Positions 9,304-51,442 of a stretch of 64,000 nucleotides of DNA are shown in pieces. Origin of the DNA: Paludibacteraceae bacterium (GTDB lineage: Bacteria > Bacteroidota > Bacteroidia > Bacteroidales > Paludibacteraceae); contig JAKSKZ010000013.1 in assembly GCA_024401475.1 (NCBI GenBank), forward strand, positions 6,284 to 70,283. Direction: 5' to 3'. The notes below the pieces were generated by a model that ran no database searches, was not told the DNA's origin, and saw only the letters and a list, made by a program, of their open reading frames with translations. How positions within the stretch are numbered: position 1 is the first letter of the stretch; every line of letters begins with the position of its first letter. The position numbers and the translations under genes are program-made.

Positions 9304-10122
9304 TTAGTATTGCTCGTTTTCGTTAGGGAAATCACCTGATTTGACGTCCGTGATGTACGATTGCACGGCATTGGTGATTACCTCGTGCAAATCTGCGTAA
9401 CGGCGAAGGAACTTAGGTGAGAAGCCCTTGTTGATGCCGAGCATGTCGTGCATAACCAATACTTGTCCGTCGGCTCCGTTTCCGGCACCGATACCAATGG
9501 TCGGAATGGTAAGAGCCTTGGAAACCTCCGTGGCCAACTTGGCTGGAATCTTCTCCAAAACGATGGCATAACAGCCTGCTTGTTCCAACAATTTAGCATC
9601 GTTGATGAGTTTGGCCGCTTCTGCGTCGTCTTTTGCTCTAAGGGCGTATGAACCATATTTGTTGATGGATTGAGGCATCAAACCTAAGTGACCCATGACA
9701 GGAACGCCTGCGTCTATAATCTTCTTGATTGTGCCTACAAACTCCTCTCCTCCTTCAATCTTGACAGAGTCTGCTCCAGATTCTTTTAGAATACGAATGG
9801 CAGAGCGAACGCCTTCTGCTTCATCGCATTGATAACTACCAAATGGCATATCAACTACAACATGCGCGCGTTTAACACCTCTAACAACGCATTGTGCGTG
9901 GTAGATGAGTTGGTCAAGTGTCACAGGAATTGTCGATGAGAAACCTGACATGACGTTGCCTGCGGAGTCGCCGACAAGGATCACGTCCATTCCAGCCTGG
10001 TCGATGATAGATGCCATGGAGTAGTCGTATGCTGTAAGCATAGAGATTTTCTCTCCGTTGGCTTTCATATCTGCCAAAGACTTGGCTGACACTTTTTTAA
10101 TGCTTTCATTATGTACTGACAT
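9304..10122 (-). CDS. panB: 3-methyl-2-oxobutanoate hydroxymethyltransferase
   Basis: 272 aa, recognisable as PanB along its full length ([39 protein letters not shown]). Confidence 0.93.
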
Positions 10123-40485: not shown

Positions 40486-40520
40486 AAATTAAGAGTCAAT
40501 AATATACTACAAATATAAAA

Positions 40521-40553
40521 CAAAAAAGGCTGAATCACAAACCGGATCCAGCC
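40521..40553 (-). terminator. rho-independent terminator of the nucleoside hydrolase gene copy
   Basis: Stem ggctgaatc (40528-40536) pairs with gatccagcc (40545-40553) with one mismatch. A plus-strand A-run gives a T-run on the minus strand. The same structure recurs at about 50373-50405. Confidence 0.55.
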
Positions 40554-40576
40554 TAAATAATTTGTGATGTTGAAGG

Positions 40577-41413
40577 TTACTTCAAACTTTCCTTAATTGT
40601 GTTTACCAAGAAATCCTTTTCCATATCTGTGGCAACATGGATAAGTTTGCCATCTGCAGCCTCTTCAATGTGGCCGATATTGTTGGCAGTGAGTTTGTAA
40701 TCCTTGATGGAGAACTTGCTCTTATTGTAGTAGTAAAGCACTGGTAGGCAGTCGTGAATAACGCAGCCTGTCGCGTCTTTTGTGTATTTCACGTTAGATG
40801 CGTAGTTTTGAAGAAGGATGCTCTTCATTTCTGGGTATTTGCTAAAATCCATGCTGTCAATCTCTGTCTTGGCAATGCTTGCATATACCTCCGTAATGTC
40901 GAGAGGGAAAATGGTGATGTCGAGAGCCGAAGATAGAACGGTTTGAACAGCTGGACCATCACCTGCGAAGTTGTACTCTGTTTGACCCTCTTTGTTGAAG
41001 TGCGTGATACCACCTCCCATGATATAGACATTCTTGATGTGAGACACCGTTTCCGGATATTTTGTGATCAAATTAGCAAGAGTTGACAACGGACCCACTG
41101 CGATATATGTCACGCTATCCTTTTGGTTGATTTCTGACGCAAGATAAGCCAAATCCTTATTAGTTGCAATCATACTATCCGTCACTCCATATTTAATTGC
41201 CATAGAGTCTGCAATGCCAGCCAAACCGTCTGTTCCGTGGAAATCGCCACAAGTAACTTCATGCCCATCGGAAGGTTCTCCGATGCCTTGGCACAAAACA
41301 CTGTTCATGTTCAAATATTTCGCCATGATGTTCATGTTACGAGTCGTATATTTGAAAGGCATATTTCCGAATGTAGAAATCATATACTCAGGCTCTCCGA
41401 TAGTCTTTGCGAA
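40577..41413 (-). pseudogene. 5'-truncated copy of the inosine-uridine-preferring nucleoside hydrolase gene
   Basis: It encodes residues equivalent to about 60-337 of the intact paralog at 50429..51442. It lacks the lipoprotein signal and the catalytic DxDxxxDD motif. The track ORF only begins at a GTG in unrelated sequence at 41447-41449. Confidence 0.75.
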
Positions 41414-41977
41414 GAAAATATTACACACAGAGGCGCATACCCGTTTCACCTATCCGTTCTCTAAATTAGAGTTGAGGGTGAGGCGTTATAGCAAGGAGTT
41501 GTATGAGGAGTTGGAGAAATATGTGAAAAGTTGATACAACCAAAAAGCGCGGACATTAGCCCGCGCTTCTCTTTTCTATATCGGAACCGATTACTTCACG
41601 TTTCCAACCTTGATAAGGTACTCCGCGATTTGAACAGTAATCCGTCATTTTCAACCATCTTGCCAGAATAGTGCGTGATGGCTACCTTCGTGCCAAAAAC
41701 GTAAAAGTTATGGAAAGAAAAAGAAATATGCAGATGTTGACATTTGGGTATTTTTCTCGATTATTTGGTTCTGAAGTTTTGTTAGGCTATATTCTTAGAA
41801 GAGATAATTTGGCATTTGCTGAAATGTTCTTTTCTCAATAATACATATTTCTGCCGAAAATATGTTAAAGATTGCACAAAACAAGATAAAACTGATTGTT
41901 TTTTAAAGAAAAAATCGTATTCTTGCCGTCAAATGTCGGTTAAAAGGACATTGAAAGCCCCCAAAAAGCAGATTATA

Positions 41978-43591
41978 ATGAGCAGATTCAGATACCCGAT
42001 TGACAATGACCAGTTCCAGGAAATAAGGGAACAGGGACTATTGTATGTTGACAAGACTGACATGATGTATGATCTTGCCAACAGGTATAAGTACATTTTT
42101 CTGGCTCGTCCTCGACGTTTTGGCAAATCTCTGCTTTGCAACACCTTTAAGGCCTACTTTCAGGGACAGAAAGAGCTGTTCGAGGGGCTGAAGGTGATGA
42201 AGCTGGAGAAACAGTGGAAAAAGTTCCCTGTACTTCATTTTATTTTGAGTGGTCTGAAGGACTGTAGCCTTGATGACGCTAAAGGAAAATTGGAACTACT
42301 AATTTCTAAATACGAAAAAGATTTTGGTAGAAATGAAGCAGAGAAAACTCCTGGTGCTCGCTTTAGTGGCTTAATACATCGTGCATTTGAGCAGACTGGC
42401 GAAAAAGTAGTTGTTATTCTTGATGAATATGACTCGGCTATTATGCGACTGATGTACATGCCAGAACAACTTGATGAAATGCGTTCTTTGCTGCGTGAGT
42501 TCTATCAGGTGCTGAAGGATGAAGGCGAGTATCTCCGTTTCGTCTTCATCACTGGCGTTACCAAATTCTCACAGCTCAGCATCTTCTCAGAGTTGAATAA
42601 TCTGAATCAAATATCTTTTGATGATAAATACTCTGGATTATGCGGTATTACGCAAGAAGAATTAGATACAACTCTCCGTCCATGTATTGAGGAATATGCA
42701 GATGCCCTTAATGTTACTGTGGATGAAGCATATGCTTTGCTAAAGAAGAACTATGATGGTTATCATTTCTCGCCAAGAAGCAAGGATGTATATGCACCAT
42801 TCAGCCTATTGAAAGCTTTGGACAAACAAACAACCGATCCATATTGGTTCGATTCTGGAACCTCCAAGTCACTGATAGATCACTTACAGCACCAACCAGA
42901 GTTCAATCCACTGGATTTTGATGGAGCTGAGCTATCAATCAATGCTTTTAATGTGCCATGCGAGAAGGCTAGTACACCAATCCCTTTGCTTTACCAAAGT
43001 GGTTATCTTACAATCGCTTCATATGACAAGGAATTGGATTCATACACACTCCATTTTCCCAATTACGAAGTAAGGCGGGGTATGATAGAAAGCCTGACCA
43101 ATTATCTGATGGATGCTGACGATTTGGAACGAGATGCAGCAGTTCTGTTAATGGCACGAGCTTTTAAGAATAGCGATTTATCTACAGCACTGTTGGGGCT
43201 ACGTTCTTGGATTGCCAGCCTTCCCTACGACATTATCACCCAAAAGGAATGGATGGCGAAGAAGAAACGAGAGGCATTCTACAAGCTGCTTATCTATGTC
43301 ATCTTCTCCATGCTCAATAGCAAGGTCGATACCGAAGTCAAGAGCATCCTGGGTCGTGCCGATGTGGTGATCAAGACCAAGACAGACATCTTTGTGCTGG
43401 AACTGAAGGTAGACGACTCTGTCGAGAATGCCTTGGCACAGATTGACAGCAAGGGGTATGCTATCCCATACGAGGCTGACGATCGGAAAGTGACTAAGTG
43501 CGGAGTTTGTATCTCAAGCGAACAGCGCAACATCACCCACTGGCGAATTACCGATGCAGAAGGATGCATCTTAAACGAAATGAAATTCTAA
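41978..43591 (+). CDS. AAA-ATPase-like protein with C-terminal PD-(D/E)xK nuclease-like domain (PDDEXK_9 type)
   Basis: The start is refined to the ATG at 41978 (MSRFRYPIDNDQF). Motifs: ARPRRFGKSL, VVILDEYDS, and C-terminal GRADVVIKTKTDIFVLELKVD. It is a paralog of 5618..7189. Confidence 0.8.
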   Translation: MSRFRYPIDNDQFQEIREQGLLYVDKTDMMYDLANRYKYIFLARPRRFGKSLLCNTFKAYFQGQKELFEGLKVMKLEKQWKKFPVLHFILSGLKDCSLDDAKGKLELLISKYEKDFGRNEAEKTPGARFSGLIHRAFEQTGEKVVVILDEYDSAIMRLMYMPEQLDEMRSLLREFYQVLKDEGEYLRFVFITGVTKFSQLSIFSELNNLNQISFDDKYSGLCGITQEELDTTLRPCIEEYADALNVTVDEAYALLKKNYDGYHFSPRSKDVYAPFSLLKALDKQTTDPYWFDSGTSKSLIDHLQHQPEFNPLDFDGAELSINAFNVPCEKASTPIPLLYQSGYLTIASYDKELDSYTLHFPNYEVRRGMIESLTNYLMDADDLERDAAVLLMARAFKNSDLSTALLGLRSWIASLPYDIITQKEWMAKKKREAFYKLLIYVIFSMLNSKVDTEVKSILGRADVVIKTKTDIFVLELKVDDSVENALAQIDSKGYAIPYEADDRKVTKCGVCISSEQRNITHWRITDAEGCILNEMKF

Positions 43592-43775
43592 ATTATTGCT
43601 GTCCGGTACTTTCAATTTAGAAGTGCAAGAAAAAGAGTCGGATGAAGGATGCAGAGGCTAGTGTATTTTCAGAATATAAAGGAAATTACATACTTAATGT
43701 TCAACAAATCAGCAATTGTGGTATAACTCGTATTTTTCATTAATTTCAATTTGGCTCAAACATTATATAATAACA

Positions 43776-43846
43776 AAAATAAAAGTCCTTGGAATTGATA
43801 TTTCAAGGACTTTCTTGTTTATATATCAGAATGTTATGTCTATCCT
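43776..43846. repeat. diverged copy of the 39001..39071 terminator-plus-spacer segment
   Basis: aaaaataaaagtccttggaattgatatttcaaggactttcttgtttatatatcagaatgttatgtctatcct aligns with 39001-39071 with a few substitutions and one indel. Both copies end in gaatgttatgtctatcct. Confidence 0.75.
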
Positions 43847-44101
43847 GTAAGCGTCCAATCTGAAAAAATCAATCAAATTGGACGCTTACTAGAAGGTTGC
43901 AGCTACAAGAATTTCGCAATCAGAACGAAGAAATCATGTCTTTCATAAAGTCTTGTCAAGGAGTGTTCCTGTCGCCCAAGGTATTCTGGTGGTGGGCTGG
44001 CATCTCATACGCCACTTCGTTATATTCACTCTGGTGTATTTTGCAAATGGTTCTTCAGTGGTTGAAATACTAGACTGGTCTTGCCTGGAATAGATCAATA
44101 C

Positions 44102-44130
44102 AAAAATGTGCGACAATGTCGCACATTTTT
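44102..44130. terminator. bidirectional terminator-like palindrome downstream of the AlbA_2 gene
   Basis: aaaaatgtgcgaca-a-tgtcgcacattttt is a near-perfect palindrome flanked by an A-run and a T-run. It lies 43 nt after the stop at 44173. Confidence 0.55.
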
Positions 44131-44172
44131 ACAAGACACACTTTTCGATCGTCGCAAATCACGACGGTGATT

Positions 44173-45600
44173 TTATTCTTTATCAAGCACTTCCCAATGT
44201 CCACTATAACCACTACCTACATAACGGATATGTGGAATTTTAGCAAGGTGGCGCTTGATAGTCATTGAGGTAACCCCAAATTGTTTCGCCAATTCTTCTG
44301 TGGTAATATTAAGATTATCTTTAATAGCCTTCTCTATTTTTTCATCGAGAGTATCTTCTTGAGTAACACCTTGAGTAACACCTTGAGTAACATCTTGAGT
44401 AACATCTTGAGTACCACTCTTAGCAGGTCTCATAAATGTCACCACAACAAAGCCACCATTGACAGTCCATGTTGGTGCTGCTACACCTCTCTTTTGGCAA
44501 GCCTCCATGATGCGTTTTACACCAGAGCCCCAGTTCTCAATATAGGTTGTGCTATATAGTACATTGGCTATAAGTGGATTGTACGGATATGAGATATGTG
44601 GCTGGAAGATATTCTCTGGTGTAATCTGTGGAGGTAGTATGCCAGGATTCTCAATTTCGATGCGGTCATCGTAGATGGCAATGCCTATGGTCAGGTTATA
44701 ACGTTCGTACTGACGATGGCAAAGGGCATTCAATACCACTTCACGCAGAGCTTCGGCAGGTACTTCCAGATATTCATCACGAACCAGCCCGACTATCTTT
44801 CCATGCATATTCAGGTGCTTGCGGAAGAAATTCATAGCCTCATTAAGCAGTACGAAGATATTTCCCTCCACTCGCTGGTTGTCGATAAACTCATTCTTAT
44901 CTGTCCCTTGGAACCGAGCCAAACGCATAGTGAATTGCGTGTACATGCCTGTTTCTTTTGTAAAGAGTGCGGTGGCAGCGTTTAGAGGTTTGTTATCTGT
45001 CGTCAACTTCCATTTTCCTAACACATCCTCAATGGGTTCTGTTAGAGCCAAATCTGACAACCGACCTCTTTCAACACCAAGACGAACAACACCACGTATC
45101 AGTTTCTCGTCCAATGAACTGATATCTGTAAACTCCGATAGTTGTCTTTCCCATGCGAACATGTCTGGCTTACTTCTACGTAACCGCTCTTCATACATGT
45201 CGCGTGGCATCTCCTTCGTTGTACTCTCCACCTTATAGTAAGGACAACCATGATAAGTATAAGGCACCATGCCCCATGCCCATCCATCAAAGTGCATGGC
45301 AATTACTTTGTTGTCTGGGCAATCAGGAACATCGATATACTCAACCCGGACATCAACCTGTGGCTCCATGTAACTCAGAGCCTGGGCAATCTCCCGTTGG
45401 GTATTGTCAGTAACCTGCTGGCCCTGAATCTTCAATGATTTGGGAGCGACACCGAAGATGAGCCACCCACCTTCTGTGTTCAAGAAGGCACAAGCAGAAT
45501 GCATGCCATCCTTCAGTTCACCCGTGGTCTTTTTCAACTCCAACTGACGATGCTCGTCAGCTTGTATCAGTTCCTTCAGTTCTTCTATTGTAAGTGCCAT
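44173..45600 (-). CDS. AlbA_2 (Schlafen-like) / HATPase_c_4 / wHTH protein (often annotated RecG-like ATP-binding or putative DNA-binding protein)
   Basis: 475 aa. The N-terminal AlbA_2-type segment reads EHRQLELKKTTGELKDGMHSACAFLNTEGGWLIFGV. The central region (ALREVVLNALCHRQYERYN...IEIENPG) is like the RecG C-terminal ATPase-like domain. The C terminus is an HTH (ITTEELAKQFGVTSMTIKRHL). A TQ(D/G)V tetrapeptide repeat linker is also present. Confidence 0.8.
   Translation of the reverse strand: MALTIEELKELIQADEHRQLELKKTTGELKDGMHSACAFLNTEGGWLIFGVAPKSLKIQGQQVTDNTQREIAQALSYMEPQVDVRVEYIDVPDCPDNKVIAMHFDGWAWGMVPYTYHGCPYYKVESTTKEMPRDMYEERLRRSKPDMFAWERQLSEFTDISSLDEKLIRGVVRLGVERGRLSDLALTEPIEDVLGKWKLTTDNKPLNAATALFTKETGMYTQFTMRLARFQGTDKNEFIDNQRVEGNIFVLLNEAMNFFRKHLNMHGKIVGLVRDEYLEVPAEALREVVLNALCHRQYERYNLTIGIAIYDDRIEIENPGILPPQITPENIFQPHISYPYNPLIANVLYSTTYIENWGSGVKRIMEACQKRGVAAPTWTVNGGFVVVTFMRPAKSGTQDVTQDVTQGVTQGVTQEDTLDEKIEKAIKDNLNITTEELAKQFGVTSMTIKRHLAKIPHIRYVGSGYSGHWEVLDKE
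44358..44415. repeat. 12-bp tandem repeat (about 4.8 copies) inside the AlbA_2 gene
   Basis: cttgagtaacac x2, cttgagtaacat x2 and a partial cttgagtacc, encoding GTQDVTQDVTQGVTQGVTQ on the minus strand. The repeat is in frame. Confidence 0.85.
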
Positions 45601-45632
45601 ATATTTATAACGTTCTGTTCTGTTTTATATTG

Positions 45633-45965
45633 TCACATATTTATGTACTTCACAGGATTTTGGCTTTTGCCATAGAAGGTTGTTACGTCTTTTCCAATGT
45701 ATGTTGTATGTTCGTCTTCAACTCCCAGGAACTCACACCTTCCAATGTGTTTAGGGCCTTCGGTGTATTTCCAATCTACAGGATTATAGACTTATTCCAC
45801 AATTCCATTAACAATAGCAAGAACGTGCGTAGCCTTTCTTGCACGGTTTATATCAACCTTCCAATACTTACGGGTCATCTCATAGAGATTCTCCCTTTTT
45901 ACTTTCCCTACTTTTACACAGATAATGCAGTCTTCGGGATTAGGTCTCAATTCATTTGTCACCAT
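45633..45965 (-). pseudogene. 110-codon reading frame interrupted by one in-frame TAA (or a 57-aa small protein)
   Basis: From the ATG at 45963-45965 it reads MVTNELRPNPEDCIICVKVGKVKRENLYEMTRKYWKVDINRARKATHVLAIVNGIVE, then TAA at 45792-45794. The same frame continues VYNPVDWKYTEGPKHIGRCEFLGVEDEHTTYIGKDVTTFYGKSQNPVKYINM to a TGA at 45633-45635. Both halves are below the 60-aa cutoff of the ORF track. Confidence 0.45.
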
Positions 45966-46000
45966 ATTCGGATATTATTAATTGACATTTTTGTATAGCG

Positions 46001-49000
46001 CTATTTGTTAGGATCATACTCTGTTCCACAATTCGGACAAACACGATGCCCATCACTTCGCATCTGCATAGAATTTCCACACTTATAGCAAAAATACTCA
46101 TGCTTCTCCCAATGTCCTAAATCGTGTTCTACAAACGTTCTGAGTCTGTCTGAAAGAAACCCTCCAGTCATATGTAGATGGCTTATTCGCAGTCTAAAGT
46201 TTTCTGTTGAACAACAAGCTCCGCATTCGGGACAAATATACTGTCCATTTGGACATTGCTTTGAGTCGCGGCTATCTATAGTCGCATTACACTTTTGCTT
46301 ATTGAAACAGTGGTTGAGATATACGATAAATCCCTTCTTTTTACAATTGTCATTGGTGCAGGAAAATTCCGTAACAGCCCTTGACGTGAAATTTGTTATA
46401 TCTGAAGGCTTCATCAGTTTACCGCATTCACGACATTTTAGATGCTCGTAAAACTTGGCAAAACTCTTCAAATAGGATGAAAGAATGATGTAATGGCCGA
46501 ATTTTGTTCGTTTCCCATTTTTATTTATGTAGTCGGGGGATATTCCCAAAATACGCATAAAATCAAGAATAGTGTAATACTCCCATTCATCATCAGTACG
46601 ATACCTTACAGGCGGACGGAAGCAAGGCTTGTTGCCGCACCAATAAAAAGCAAGATCATGATAATTGCCCACTTTATCTGAAAGACGACATTCGCAGAAT
46701 TCTTCCTGATCTTCTCCTTTGGTTTCAAATCCGACAAAATTGTTCAGACCTTTATATTTAAAATTGAACGGTCTTGCTATTGCAAAAAGTTCTGCCTCGT
46801 AAGCTTCGTCAAAATAAAAGGAAACTCCATTTTGTTCATTTACAATTTGGTATTCATTCTCCTTGTATGTTATTTGTATCTGCTGGATGGCACGGGCATA
46901 ATACTTATTATTATAATCTTTTATATTGCCATATTCATCAATCATCTTCTGAGGGATGAAAACTCTTAGTCTGCCATCTTGTATCTTACTGATTATGCCA
47001 TTGAAATAGCTGTTACGTTTCCAATTGCTTCTATCGTCAGGGAGTTCATTTACCACCCATCTGCCAGAACATTGAGTAACAATACTTCTAATGCCAATCC
47101 ACTCGTCCGTATCTTCTCTACCTTCAAGCAACTGAAGCATAACATTGTTATCCAGAGTCTTTGATTGGTCCTTCTCACGCAATTTCAAATATGTAAAAGC
47201 AATTTCCAGAGGGAAGCATATCGGCCTCTCTCCATTGGAAATGAGATTATAAAAGGATTCTGCCGTGTGATGGATTTTTCCCTCACTCATAGACTTAAAA
47301 AGTTTCTTGACGATCTTTATCTGTAGGTACGGTGGCAGGATTGCAAAGACTTCTTTCAAAGAAGCCGTCGATGTTGTGGTCTTAGAAAGAACTGCCCACC
47401 ATATCACGGCAAGTCTTTGATTAATATTATTTGTTTTCTTGAAGTTCTGTATTTGGCTCGTAAAACTTGTTTCCCAATTTCGCAGTGTATAGAAATCACT
47501 ATCGCCACCTGGCATGTTGGCTGTCATAAGTTCGGTCAAGAGAACAGCAAGTGCAACATTTTCGTCGGTCATTTCCATTGATTGTAATCTCTGCGCAATC
47601 AGCGGGAATAAATTAACCTCTGTCGTTTCCAGAACCTTTGCATGTGTTCTGTTTTTGAGCGAAGGTTTATCATACCATCGCTCCTTTTCTGCATACACTC
47701 CATTAAGGGAAATTGCGTTGATGATAATCTCTACAATATTCTCTGGCAACGACGTGACAACATCATGTTCAAATAGAATCAGAAGGTCTTCTACCGACCT
47801 GCTGTTGATGTAGTCATCCCATACTGAAGAGCACTGGCCATCTGGAATCAACTTCTTCAAATCTTTGAGAAAAGTACAATTCTCCCGTTCAGGATAGCGA
47901 GAATAATACTTTTTTTCTCTCTCTTCCAATGGCTTACCGTCAAAGAAATGGCTAAGTGGGGTTGTTTCTACCACCTCTTTTGCCCTCGCAATGACAATAT
48001 TAGCAAATTCGATGCTATGATCAAACAATTCAGAAGCGTCTTTGACAAATTTCTTTATGTCCGCATACCCCCATTGTGAAACAATTTGCTCCGACAAGGC
48101 TAATGTTTCATCTATTGTAAGCCATGAATGAAAACCAGTTGATACCTCAGAAAGCACACCTATGGACTGTGTTTCTCTCAATATGGGGATAAGTCCTTGT
48201 TTAATTTCCACTTTCTCTGCTTTTTCATAGATTGAGCTATAATGCTCGTATGCTGAGAAGAAGTCGGACTTTATTCTGTAGGGAGAATTTAGGTTGGTGC
48301 GCAACAACTCTTTTAGTTTATCCTTTATCAATGGAAGCAATTTCTGCCTGAAAGGATTTAGAAAATCTTCACCCATAACCGAAAGTTGCCCGATATCGCC
48401 AATCACTTGCCAATACTTCTTCTCCTCGATAGCTTTATCAAGGATTTGTGAGATTGACAATGCCAATTCTTCTCTAAAGGACTGGAAATCTTCTACGGAC
48501 AGGTTGTTGAGATAGGTGAAGAAATCGTTTCTTCTGTAGTCATTATGCTGTTTCCCAACAAATGCCGTCAATTCTTTCTTGAAACGATTTGTCTTCACCA
48601 AAGTCAAACACTTAGCTTTTTCCTCTTCATACTGCTTGGAGGTCAAGCGGAGGTACGACCACAGTTTGCTTACAGCATTCTGCTTATCGCGGTCAACATA
48701 CATCCCCGTCCTCCTTCTGTGTTCACTCGAAGCTTTTAGGTCATCTTCAAATATATCCGAACGTGTGGACAATTCTTCAAACACCTCGTTAATTTTGCCA
48801 TCCACCATTGTCTCGATGCATTGTTTGGCATACTTCACACATTCGTTGGGGATATACTCAAATGATTTCTCAACATCTTGCCAATCAGAGAGTGTACTGT
48901 TGGCATTGAGTTTCTGTTCCAGCCATTTCTGTACAAGGTCTGCATCGTCGAAATATCTAACAATGGTTGGATATATTATCAATACAGCCAGCCGTTCTTC

Positions 49001-49546
49001 ATCAGTAAAGATAGAGAGAAGTGACTGCCAGATGGACTTATCTTCTGTTGAGAACTGTCGGTCAAAGATATATCGATCTTTGGAGTATTCGTTCTGTTTG
49101 TAATGGTCTACAAAGAACTTAAAGTGTTCAGACGTTTTTTCTGGGGTACGCTCTGCATCCTCCTCAATTATACGTTTCACCTTATCTGCAACCATACCTA
49201 AAGGTTTGAAGGTATGCGTATAGAGATTCATTTTTCGATTGTCTTTATACTCAATATACTCATGGTCTCCGTAATAAGACAATGCTAGCTGTGCATCCTC
49301 ATCTGACTTGGTAATGCGTCTGACATTCACTGCTCGTTTCTTGCCGTTGTCCTGCTTGTCCACCTGAAAAACAACAATCTGCCCTTCTTTCTTTGCTTCA
49401 TCCTCAATGAAACTCGCAGAACAAACATAAAAGTCTTGGTTGTATTTAGGTGACGGCATATTACAATTGTTAGACGCAATGAAGCCGAAGTCCTTGTTTG
49501 TGTCTAAGAACTTCACCGCACCTATAAAGTATTTGTCTGTAAACAT
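46001..49546 (-). CDS. large uncharacterised protein: N-terminal cold-shock-like OB domain, long helical middle, C-terminal cluster of zinc ribbons
   Basis: The 1181-aa ORF is the longest in the window. The N terminus GAVKFLDTNKDFGFIASN...IVVFQVDKQDNGKKRAVNV resembles the CspA-type GxVKWFNxxKGFGFI fold. About 900 aa follow without Walker or nuclease motifs. The last roughly 250 aa hold at least four Cys clusters, including CRECGK...CTNDNC, CPNGQYICPECGACC and CYKCGNSMQMRSDGHRVCPNCG. Confidence 0.8.
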   Translation of the reverse strand: MFTDKYFIGAVKFLDTNKDFGFIASNNCNMPSPKYNQDFYVCSASFIEDEAKKEGQIVVFQVDKQDNGKKRAVNVRRITKSDEDAQLALSYYGDHEYIEYKDNRKMNLYTHTFKPLGMVADKVKRIIEEDAERTPEKTSEHFKFFVDHYKQNEYSKDRYIFDRQFSTEDKSIWQSLLSIFTDEERLAVLIIYPTIVRYFDDADLVQKWLEQKLNANSTLSDWQDVEKSFEYIPNECVKYAKQCIETMVDGKINEVFEELSTRSDIFEDDLKASSEHRRRTGMYVDRDKQNAVSKLWSYLRLTSKQYEEEKAKCLTLVKTNRFKKELTAFVGKQHNDYRRNDFFTYLNNLSVEDFQSFREELALSISQILDKAIEEKKYWQVIGDIGQLSVMGEDFLNPFRQKLLPLIKDKLKELLRTNLNSPYRIKSDFFSAYEHYSSIYEKAEKVEIKQGLIPILRETQSIGVLSEVSTGFHSWLTIDETLALSEQIVSQWGYADIKKFVKDASELFDHSIEFANIVIARAKEVVETTPLSHFFDGKPLEEREKKYYSRYPERENCTFLKDLKKLIPDGQCSSVWDDYINSRSVEDLLILFEHDVVTSLPENIVEIIINAISLNGVYAEKERWYDKPSLKNRTHAKVLETTEVNLFPLIAQRLQSMEMTDENVALAVLLTELMTANMPGGDSDFYTLRNWETSFTSQIQNFKKTNNINQRLAVIWWAVLSKTTTSTASLKEVFAILPPYLQIKIVKKLFKSMSEGKIHHTAESFYNLISNGERPICFPLEIAFTYLKLREKDQSKTLDNNVMLQLLEGREDTDEWIGIRSIVTQCSGRWVVNELPDDRSNWKRNSYFNGIISKIQDGRLRVFIPQKMIDEYGNIKDYNNKYYARAIQQIQITYKENEYQIVNEQNGVSFYFDEAYEAELFAIARPFNFKYKGLNNFVGFETKGEDQEEFCECRLSDKVGNYHDLAFYWCGNKPCFRPPVRYRTDDEWEYYTILDFMRILGISPDYINKNGKRTKFGHYIILSSYLKSFAKFYEHLKCRECGKLMKPSDITNFTSRAVTEFSCTNDNCKKKGFIVYLNHCFNKQKCNATIDSRDSKQCPNGQYICPECGACCSTENFRLRISHLHMTGGFLSDRLRTFVEHDLGHWEKHEYFCYKCGNSMQMRSDGHRVCPNCGTEYDPNK

Positions 49547-49568
49547 CTATTTTATTAATTTCATATTA

Positions 49569-49576
49569 CAAATATA
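49569..49576 (-). promoter_or_regulatory. candidate -7 promoter box (TAnnTTTG) for the 1181-aa gene
   Basis: Plus-strand caaatata is tatatttg on the minus strand. It lies 23 nt upstream of the ATG at 49546 and downstream of the hairpin terminator at 49592-49620. Confidence 0.4.
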
Positions 49577-49591
49577 GCCTAAAAACGCTAT

Positions 49592-49620
49592 AAAACAATA
49601 AAATCAGCCCGAAGGCTGAT
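49592..49620 (-). terminator. hairpin terminator between the IS66 remnant and the 1181-aa gene
   Basis: Stem atcagcc (49603-49609), loop cgaa, stem ggctgat (49614-49620). On the minus strand it is followed by tttattgtttta. Confidence 0.5.
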
Positions 49621-49631
49621 TCTAAACCATT

Positions 49632-49823
49632 CTAAATCTCATTGATTCTGTCTGGCAGTTTGACCTTGTCACGCTTCTTCGACATGGTTATGAACACGTC
49701 GCCGTTGTAGGGGTCACGACCGAGCATCTCCCGTATGGTGTTGCAGAGGCGGAAGTGTCCGAGGCGCATGTCGGTGATGCCCTCCACGTAAAAGTACCTG
49801 TAGTCCGGATTGAGGTTCAGCAT
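49632..49823 (-). pseudogene. truncated IS66 Orf2 (TnpB accessory protein)
   Basis: YFYVEGITDMRLGHFRLCNTIREMLGRDPYNGDVFITMSKKRDKVKL fits the IS66 Orf2 consensus (..TDMRKGFDGL....DP.SG.LF.F.N.RRD..K.L). The expected WD..GF..KRLE continuation is replaced by PDRINEI-stop. Confidence 0.7.
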
Positions 49824-50134
49824 AGCACGGCGATTTTTTCAACCAGGCTTTTCAGTTCGTTCAGGCTGATGGACTCGTGCCTTAGATTCAAACCGTTCGG
49901 TAGTACAAGGTCTGCCTTGACTGAAATTTCAGTTTGTGCTGGTATTGTTGTTTGTTCCTGCTCGACGACTTCAACTGGAACCAGTTTGGGTTTTGTCTGC
50001 ACCGTAAGCCATTCGACATATTCCGCTATCGGAACACCCGACTGTTTGCAGATTTTGGAGATGGTCACTCCATCCTTGCCTTTGTTTGCCTCATACATGT
50101 CACGTATCTGGCACATTTTCTTTTCGCTTGCCAT
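49817..50134 (-). CDS. IS66-family orf1-like HTH accessory protein
   Basis: The plausible start is the ATG at 50132-50134 (MASEKKMCQIRDMYEANKGKDGVTISKICKQSGVPIAEYVEWL). The track's upstream extension runs into the LRR remnant and is not credible. Confidence 0.5.
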   Translation of the reverse strand: MASEKKMCQIRDMYEANKGKDGVTISKICKQSGVPIAEYVEWLTVQTKPKLVPVEVVEQEQTTIPAQTEISVKADLVLPNGLNLRHESISLNELKSLVEKIAVLC

Positions 50135-50231
50135 ATTTTCTAAATTTTTGTGTTCGCGACAAAGATAAGGGCAAAGGCAAGTTTTGTATTGGATGCTTAC
50201 GTCTATCCTATGCGCAAAAAGATTGACGGTC

Positions 50232-50355
50232 TTATGCCCCTTGTCCCTTATATACAAGGCAAAATACACCCAACAAGATTGCCAAAATTAGTGCAATCCC
50301 TAAGACAAAGAAAAGTATAGATTTGCCCCATGGAAAGAGAATGTGTAAGATGCAT
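50232..50355 (-). pseudogene. remnant of the 3' end of a BspA-type LRR gene paralog
   Basis: The minus-strand reading ...ILFPWGKSILFFVLGIALILAILLGVFCLVYKGQGA-stop parallels the C terminus of 39070..40485 (FFPWGKSILFFFLGLALILAILLGIFCMIYKGHGA). Nothing of the LRR body remains. Confidence 0.7.
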
Positions 50356-50368
50356 ATATACACAAACA

Positions 50369-51265
50369 TAAACAAAAAAGGCTGAATTTCAAACTAAATC
50401 CAGCCTAAATGATCTGTGATGTTGAAGGTTACTTCAAACTTTCCTTAATTGTGTTCACCAAGAAATCCTTTTCCATCTCTGTAGCGACATGGATGAGTTT
50501 ACCCTCAGCCGCCTCTTCAATGTGACCGATGTTGTTGGCCGTGAGTTTGTAATCCTTGATGGAGAACTTGCTCTTATTGTAGTAGTAAAGCACTGGTAGG
50601 CAGTCGTGAATAACGCAGCCTGTCGCGTCTTTTGTGTATTTCACGTTAGATGCGTAGTTTTGAAGAAGGATGCTCTTCATTTCTGGGTATTTGCTAAAAT
50701 CCATGCTGTCAATCTCTGTCTTGGCAATGCTTGCATATACCTCCGTAATGTCGAGAGGGAAAATGGTGATGTCGAGAGCCGAAGATAGAACGGTTTGAAC
50801 AGCTGGACCATCACCTGCGAAGTTGTACTCTGTTTGACCCTCTTTGTTGAAGTGCGTGATACCACCTCCCATGATATAGACATTCTTGATGTGAGACACC
50901 GTTTCCGGATATTTTGTGATCAAATTAGCAAGAGTTGACAACGGACCCACTGCGATATATGTCACGCTATCCTTTTGGTTGATTTCTGACGCAAGATAAG
51001 CCAAATCCTTATTAGTTGCAATCATACTATCCGTCACTCCATATTTAATTGCCATAGAGTCTGCAATGCCAGCCAAACCGTCTGTTCCGTGGAAATCGCC
51101 ACAAGTAACTTCATGCCCATCGGAAGGTTCTCCGATGCCTTGGCACAAAACACTGTTCATGTTCAAATATTTCGCCATGATGTTCATGTTACGAGTCGTA
51201 TATTTGAAAGGCATATTTCCGAATGTAGAAATCATATACTCAGGCTCTCCGATAGTCTTTGCGAA
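50369..51265. repeat. right copy of the 897-bp direct duplication (partner 40517..41413)
   Basis: See the left copy. The antisense track ORFs at 50606..50788 and 50677..50883 are identical in sequence to 40754..40936 and 40825..41031. Confidence 0.85.
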
Positions 51266-51442
51266 CATCAAGATGGCACAAGCGTCATCTGTTCCTGGAT
51301 CACAATCAAAAACGGTAGCAGTTGCTTTTTGAACCGTTTCTGGCTTAACAACATTATTAGATTGTTCAGAATTTCCTTTAGAGCCACAAGAAGAGAGGGC
51401 TACACAAAGGGATGATAGAATGACAAATGCTTTTTTTCTCAT
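50429..51442 (-). CDS. inosine-uridine-preferring nucleoside hydrolase family lipoprotein (intact copy)
   Basis: 337 aa. It has a lipoprotein signal (MRKKAFVILSSLCVALSSC) and the N-terminal aspartate cluster VFDCDPGTDDACAI (DxDxxxDD). Confidence 0.88.
   Translation of the reverse strand: MRKKAFVILSSLCVALSSCGSKGNSEQSNNVVKPETVQKATATVFDCDPGTDDACAILMFAKTIGEPEYMISTFGNMPFKYTTRNMNIMAKYLNMNSVLCQGIGEPSDGHEVTCGDFHGTDGLAGIADSMAIKYGVTDSMIATNKDLAYLASEINQKDSVTYIAVGPLSTLANLITKYPETVSHIKNVYIMGGGITHFNKEGQTEYNFAGDGPAVQTVLSSALDITIFPLDITEVYASIAKTEIDSMDFSKYPEMKSILLQNYASNVKYTKDATGCVIHDCLPVLYYYNKSKFSIKDYKLTANNIGHIEEAAEGKLIHVATEMEKDFLVNTIKESLK

Follow-up and report, generated by a model that had tools for sequence, protein, structure and literature searches.

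A widespread family of large proteins with a cold-shock-like domain and an invariant cysteine-rich core, recurrent beside restriction systems and a candidate for a role in defence

In the prr locus the gene of an anticodon nuclease is placed between hsdS and hsdR, and PARIS and BrxU/GmrSD are second-layer systems embedded in BREX or restriction-modification (RM) loci. Mobile RM systems need establishment control, and restriction alleviation is a described phenomenon. Here we analyze a gene whose relatives recur in loci of this kind, using the copy found in a 64,000-nucleotide (nt) stretch of DNA from a Paludibacteraceae bacterium (contig JAKSKZ010000013.1, positions 6,284 to 70,283; hereafter, the window). 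It is the longest open reading frame (ORF) of the window, as had been stated in a prediction made from the sequence alone (hereafter, the original prediction). The ORF lies at 46001..49546 on the minus strand, stop codon included; it starts with ATG, is intact and encodes 1181 amino acids (aa). A defence function is credible for the family, which sequence comparison presents as a candidate accessory gene of restriction loci, a known theme, and its repeated insertion in Type I RM and BREX operons is relevant to the question of what backs up or controls first-line restriction.

A large family with a conserved cysteine-rich core

The 1181-aa protein belongs to a large family that could be assigned to no named family and has no recognisable enzymatic domain. 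Searches of Pfam, NCBIfam, PADLOC and PHROGs gave only weak, sub-threshold matches to cold-shock domain (CSD) and zinc-ribbon models, and sequence and profile searches of PDB gave nothing beyond the CSD. With PADLOC v2.0.0 the only result was a weak match to CSD_V, and the homologues on Klebsiella and Prevotella plasmids had no match at all. The original prediction was thus right that no named family fits. The protein is not, however, the orphan that it was taken for: in a word-indexed search, full-length homologues with 36-96% identity made up 74 clusters, none of which carries a Pfam annotation, and a search of 1.84 billion representatives with a profile built from 45 members showed the C-terminal core in 814 clusters at E <= 1e-3 and in 302 at E <= 1e-30. 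Most of these superfamily matches are proteins of 1000-1280 residues in which the resemblance is confined to the last 230-480 residues. The family spans rumen and gut Bacteroidales, Clostridia, Enterobacteria and environmental metagenomes; in the species-representative genome set, matches were found in rumen and gut Prevotellaceae, other Bacteroidales, Paludibacteraceae and one Clostridia bin. There was no homologue among 50,697 phage records, and a phage origin was rejected on this ground. The ratio of nonsynonymous to synonymous substitution rates (dN/dS) of the window gene was 0.08-0.25 against relatives and 0.51 against the closest one; the gene is under purifying selection.

The structure model of the full-length protein was confident, with a predicted local distance difference test score (pLDDT) of 85.2, and its parts are described here from the N to the C terminus, all on the minus strand. 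A cold-shock-like oligonucleotide-binding (OB) domain occupies residues 9-78 (49313..49522), as judged by Pfam, the family profile, Foldseek and alignment. The Pfam CSD model (PF00313) matched residues 9-77 of the window protein with 18.8 bits (E 1.5e-3), which does not reach the cutoff of 27. The family profile matched solved CSD proteins (2mqh, E 1.1e-3), the modelled N terminus superposed on two viral CSD proteins with a Foldseek probability of 1.0, and five strands at residues 6-76 form the OB barrel expected of a CSD. An RNP1-like KDFGFI is kept and RNP2 is partly kept (DFYV), with a 13-residue insert between them, and these residues are invariant in the family alignment. In distant relatives the same position is held by one or two CSDs above the Pfam cutoff (28.9-56.8 bits) or by an S1 domain. 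These results bear out the CspA-like N terminus that had been predicted, and the N-terminal residues quoted for it are present.

Between the OB domain and the next module, helices extend over ~740 residues in total. A conserved region follows the CSD at residues 81-200 (48947..49306; column conservation 0.59-0.75, helices in the model). It is succeeded by a poorly conserved alpha-solenoid at residues 201-560 (47867..48946; column conservation 0.29-0.54), the most variable stretch of the family, for which Foldseek retrieved only generic matches of HEAT/importin type with a template-modelling (TM) score of ~0.1. Column conservation and the superfamily search delimit a second conserved helical region at residues 561-822 (47081..47866), which from about residue 700 is common also to distant superfamily members. 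This helical body is acidic, and the CSD and the cysteine-rich core are mildly basic. Simple pattern searches of the whole protein detected neither a Walker A, HExxH, DEAD, PLD or GIY motif nor a membrane segment, in agreement with the original prediction, which had seen no enzymatic motif.

Residues ~858-930 (46757..46975) resemble HARP, a domain which in SMARCAL1 recognises forked DNA. The Pfam model (PF07443) scored up to 30.4 bits, against a cutoff of 25, in distant relatives, and in a scan of 35 members it matched 5; the window residues align to the matches of the distant relatives, and the structure model shows the same beta-beta-alpha-beta-beta-alpha pattern. The window protein itself gave no direct Pfam HARP match. 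The architecture proposed before, with two nucleic-acid-binding modules at the ends of a scaffold, is correct as far as it goes, but it omits the HARP-like unit ahead of the C-terminal core.

The core itself (residues 946-1181, 46004..46711; delimited by superfamily alignment and model) is the most characteristic part. Among its 236 residues, 17 Cys and 1 His are invariant across the superfamily: C951, C970, C975, C1038, C1041, C1063, C1068, C1080, C1086, C1098, C1105, C1108, C1111, C1112, C1153, C1156, C1170 and H1145. Also invariant are W988, D995, Y1076, N1082, D1091, R1093 and S1113, and E1147 is nearly so. The four Cys clusters quoted in the original prediction are thus present and conserved. 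The Cys pattern can be read as a pair of classical ribbons together with a three-Cys site and a cluster of seven Cys and one His, and the core is putatively held together by about four metal sites, of Zn or Fe-S, which are indistinguishable from sequence. The ribbon pairs (C1038/C1041 with C1063/C1068, and C1153/C1156 with C1170/C1173) are fully or almost fully conserved and are modelled on short strands, giving the two CxxC-type pairs on beta hairpins that define a zinc ribbon; the matches to Pfam DZR and A2L were below cutoff. A separate model of the last 359 residues reached a pLDDT of 88.9 and a predicted TM score of 0.76, and Foldseek found no matching fold for it in PDB (best E 0.037, probability 0.18), where the core has no sequence match either. 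Profile and Foldseek comparisons, which had been suggested as a check, thus gave generic alpha-solenoid matches for the middle and none for the C terminus, and assigned the protein to no housekeeping family.

Several known enzymes and folds were considered for the core and the rest of the protein and were discarded. For an HNH or beta-beta-alpha-metal nuclease, H1079 does end a strand, but relatives have N, T, R, K, F or Y in its place, and no HNH family matched. The window protein contains RLRISH, as in HEPN ribonucleases, but its His is not conserved across the family. A PD-(D/E)xK nuclease was also rejected, in the conservation test or the hidden Markov model scan. The CxC...FYWC...C segment recalls zf-GRF, a resemblance left unsupported by the 0 of 35 members matching at E <= 1, and a deaminase-like C-E...PCxxC site was discarded, as the model has beta strands and not helices in this segment.

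Genomic contexts of the family

After near-identical upstream flanks had been merged, full-length family genes were found in 26 distinct contexts. In seven of them the family gene is immediately preceded by hsdM-hsdS-hsdR in the same orientation, at a distance of 10 bp to ~1 kb; these seven span lineages from 95% down to 35% identity, and one divergent HsdR was confirmed by Pfam. Five or six further contexts adjoin other methyltransferase-based systems, and the neighbours recorded were BREX, a type IIG enzyme with T5orf172, a methyltransferase-specificity fusion, a set with WYL and N6-methyltransferase-GHKL genes found in one lineage, and a weak N6-methyltransferase fragment. In another context RloB/AAA_21, RES, AEP-TOTE helicase and WYL genes are packed closely together in a defence island. 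The WYL set (L025 3445-7991; L051 3016-7567) stands directly upstream of the family gene and encodes a WYL regulator, an 817-829-aa protein combining an N6-methyltransferase with a GHKL ATPase, and a 338-aa protein. The N6-methyltransferase domain was matched by Pfam in the L051 copy, and the set may be an uncharacterised methylation-based system.

The wider superfamily, sharing the core, showed similar positions. On 129 Klebsiella plasmids (records) the gene of a 615-residue homologue, preceded by a YecA-like gene, is located between hsdS and hsdR, and its homology to the core was assigned by hhalign with a probability of 99.4% (E 3e-21). The YecA-like gene and the homologue occur as a pair in 199 of 5426 complete E. 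coli genomes, where the homologue again stands between hsdS and hsdR on the chromosome; one example is part of an integrase-bearing island that also contains DUF262 genes and Hhe. In Enterobacteria the two genes overlap inside the hsd operon, and they may form a pair there. The YecA-family gene, just upstream of the homologue (L027 7092-7775; L109 9001-9684), matched the PADLOC candidate PDC-S12 (E 7e-97). On a Prevotella plasmid the homologue begins 2 bp after hsdR, one superfamily member is located between pglX and pglZ-brxL of a BREX locus, and another directly after mcrB-mcrC.

Two other arrangements were seen. In a distant 1055-aa subgroup from human gut metagenomes (L083-L088) the gene is always preceded by a NusG-like gene and followed by that of a 770-aa RDD-plus-DnaJ protein, a context unlike the restriction-linked ones. 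At L099 5517-8753 the gene is split into a 418-aa part bearing the CSD and a 654-aa part bearing the core, beside an AAA_15/AAA_21 plus DUF3696 ATPase.

No conserved partner gene was found among the homologue neighbourhoods examined. Relatives at 91-97% nucleotide identity match the window only over 45572-49539, that is, over the gene and a 110-codon ORF following it, and their flanks are unrelated. A two-gene system with the neighbouring Schlafen/AlbA_2 gene was rejected: the homology of close relatives ends at 45572-45630, before the AlbA_2 gene is reached, and no AlbA_2 gene was seen beside the homologues examined. In the survey of neighbourhoods proposed in the original prediction, AlbA_2 adjacency is not conserved and restriction and defence neighbours are recurrent. 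The defence-related reading given there is supported by Type I RM, BREX, McrBC, type IIG and the mixed island, and not by the Schlafen neighbour that had been cited for it; the comparison with abortive-infection sensors is a conjecture.

The 110-codon ORF directly downstream of the gene (45633..45965, minus strand) was likewise rejected as a conserved partner. It is intact in the four closest relatives only (L010, L011, L014, L029), and its window copy is broken by a TAA at codon 58 (45792-45794). The ORF matches phrog_5356, a phage family with no assigned function (E 1.2e-9), and weakly DUF7717.

The window copy and its island

The copy in the window lies in an island of 8.9 kb (41414-50355) between direct repeats of 912 bp and 97.6% identity. 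The left repeat copy (40502..41413) and the right one (50356..51265), delimited by repeat comparison, form the edges of the island. Both correspond to the 3′ part of an inosine-uridine nucleoside hydrolase gene, of which the left copy (40577-41449) is truncated at the 5′ end and the right one (50429-51442), containing the right repeat, is intact. This pattern suggests that the island was inserted, as a circular element, by homologous recombination. Outside it the window contains housekeeping genes, namely those for Rho, TilS, a penicillin-binding protein and a cation ATPase. Inside it, the other cargo includes a protein with AAA-ATPase_like and PDDEXK_9 domains (41816-43591) and the AlbA_2 protein, which also has HATPase_c_4 and a helix-turn-helix (44173-45600) and gave weak PADLOC matches to Argonaute-associated models (E 5e-13).

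Inspection of the 5′ end revealed that it is damaged in the window. All close relatives begin with MKLIYGADKYF and have a common leader of ~110 nt. The window retains the ancestral ATG (49564-49562) but reads MKLIK and then stop (ATG AAA TTA ATA AAA TAG, 49547..49564, minus strand; identified by comparison with relatives), and the annotated ATG follows immediately after. The leader of the relatives is absent, and in its place are a hairpin and a fragment of an insertion sequence (IS) gene, IS66 TnpB. The hairpin, an intrinsic-terminator-like structure with 11 pairs and a T-run (49599..49624, minus strand), closes the IS66 TnpB (Orf2) fragment upstream of it (49632..49823, minus strand; Pfam TnpB_IS66, E 1.5e-9, profile positions 2-49 of 101). 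Between this fragment and the right-hand repeat there is a 150-aa ORF (49817-50269, minus strand) without family matches in Pfam, NCBIfam or PHROGs. A candidate promoter element, TATATTTG, was noted by reading the sequence at 49569..49576 (minus strand), 5 nt upstream of the ancestral ATG and 22 nt upstream of the ATG of the ORF; it fits TAnnTTTG, the consensus of the Bacteroidetes -7 box. Both the hairpin terminator and the box had been reported in the original prediction, where the gene was regarded as its own expression unit. The two sequences are indeed present, but the ancestral start is interrupted and the ~110-nt leader is lost.

In the relatives, the leader (GTTATATAAGCATTGTGAAGGTTTCAAGGAAACAGTTAGGCGTATAAAATA...) is conserved in L014 (about 9870-9982) and also in L010-L013, regardless of the sequence further upstream; it may act as the native promoter or as a regulatory RNA. 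Because its 5′ end is damaged and the leader replaced, the window copy may be weakly expressed or decaying; it may also have been re-promoted or recently disabled.

A candidate second layer beside restriction, and its alternatives

The reading which we favour, and to which we give an even chance, is that the gene belongs to defence islands and supplies a second layer next to systems of modification-based restriction (Type I RM, BREX, McrBC, type IIG). It is supported because members repeatedly adjoin or sit inside other defence loci. We infer this role, the ligand and each of the following steps. The protein would act as a stand-alone binder of nucleic acid through several modules, the OB domain (CSD or S1), the HARP-like unit and the Cys core; for its acting alone we also count its mobility, near-identical copies being found in unrelated flanks. 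With these parts it would detect the single-stranded or branched nucleic acid that an incoming phage or plasmid produces, and the invader would then be blocked, either by being sequestered or by the action of a catalytic site that has escaped recognition in the core, for which the invariant D995, D1091, R1093 and H1145 and the near-invariant E1147 are candidate residues. In a bolder and more doubtful form, the ~230-residue core would be a new metal-cluster fold and the effector of an unrecognised, widespread single-gene immune system, with members in about 4% of complete E. coli genomes, which guards modification-based restriction (Type I RM, BREX, McrBC); it might, for example, sense anti-restriction DNA mimics or the nucleic acid of those invaders that have evaded restriction, and destroy or sequester nucleic acid in response.

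A number of observations weigh against the defence role. About half of the distinct contexts have no adjacent restriction system, some neighbours are housekeeping genes (FBPase, Na/H exchanger), and the window contains neither a restriction system nor hsd genes. No effector domain could be identified, the CSD of the window protein stays below the Pfam cutoff and its HARP-like unit is not matched directly. In the window copy a stop follows the ancestral start, and the ORF downstream of the gene is broken. Searches of the literature available here did not find a description of the family, which does not prove that none exists. Moreover, guilt by association cannot tell a defence effector from a regulator or from a selfish passenger of RM loci.

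A regulator is one alternative to be weighed: the protein would be a control or safety device of restriction systems and not an antiviral effector, either binding replication forks or single-stranded DNA of the host and protecting unmodified or hemimethylated host DNA from translocating restriction enzymes, as in alleviation or establishment control, or tuning the expression of these enzymes. Members located inside hsd and BREX operons, and not merely nearby, would be expected from such a role, as would a HARP-like unit of fork-binding type together with a CSD, the lack of an effector domain and the requirement of mobile RM systems for establishment control. We nevertheless consider it unlikely, as many copies, including that of the window, have no restriction system within reach, near-identical copies change contexts without RM genes, and 1100-1200 residues with a fast-evolving middle are unusual in regulators. 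The position in Enterobacteria, where the order hsdM-hsdS-X-hsdR is that of the prr locus, is open to yet another explanation, a latent RNA-targeting toxin which, like PrrC, is guarded by the RM complex and is freed when a phage anti-restriction protein disables that complex; the CSD or S1 would bring the RNA and the Cys core would be a new ribonuclease. An N-terminal CSD, two CSDs or S1 are typical RNA binders, and the core has invariant Asp, Arg and His. However, there are no ABC-ATPase or anticodon-nuclease features and no Walker A, the HEPN-like RxxxxH of the window protein is not conserved, stand-alone copies lack the guard, and the nuclease activity is pure conjecture, so that we regard the guarded toxin as unlikely too.

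The state of the window copy can also be explained without any benefit to the host, if the gene has a selfish or maintenance role in mobile elements and is merely carried along in variable regions, with the window holding a decaying, functionless remnant. The contexts include plasmids, relaxase and Rep genes and IS elements, the window copy is in an island between 912-bp repeats, the IS66 fragment upstream, the stop after the ancestral start and the broken neighbouring ORF all fit decay, and so does the dN/dS of 0.51 against the closest relative. On the other hand, without selection a 3.5-kb ORF free of frameshifts and internal stops would soon close, dN/dS against the other relatives is 0.08-0.25, an ATG stands right after the stop, and the 50,697 phage records hold no homologue; we judge this explanation improbable. 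For the preferred reading, a role in defence, a direct test in standard hosts is possible because homologues are found in hsd operons of E. coli chromosomes and on Klebsiella conjugative plasmids. If it is true, the family adds a widespread system without a recognisable effector, whose core fold is unmatched in solved structures; if restriction control is true instead, it would add a new class to the accessory factors of RM.

Of the known systems with which the family was compared, PrrC and RloC are accessory genes inside or directly after hsd operons, as are the Enterobacterial relatives between hsdS and hsdR, and an N-terminal domain of RNA-binding type is plausible here too. Unlike them, the 1181-aa protein has no Walker A, no ABC-ATPase head, no match to an ATPase family and no known nuclease motif, and many members stand alone; the window has no hsd genes, whereas many relatives are within Type I RM operons. 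This comparison was made with the order of the prr locus, not with PrrC sequences, and no sequence or domain relationship was noted. The embedded position is shared with PARIS and BrxU/GmrSD, as superfamily members lie within BREX or flank BREX, McrBC and Type I RM, but the 1181-aa protein matches no PADLOC model for such systems and has no ATPase, Toprim or DUF262-type nuclease domain.

The individual modules have their own counterparts. With the CspA family the protein shares the OB fold, with RNP1-like KDFGFI and aromatic RNP2 residues, and with eukaryotic CSD-plus-zinc-knuckle proteins such as Lin28 the combination of a CSD with Cys-based metal modules. CspA has ~70 residues compared with 1181, and the window CSD is below the Pfam cutoff; unlike the CCHC knuckles of such eukaryotic proteins, the Cys modules of the window protein are ribbons and a seven-Cys-plus-His cluster. 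As for SMARCAL1 and ZRANB3, Foldseek retrieved no HARP structure, and the protein has neither an SNF2 motor nor a direct HARP match, but in distant relatives a HARP match above the Pfam cutoff immediately precedes the Cys core, and the window protein aligns to them there.

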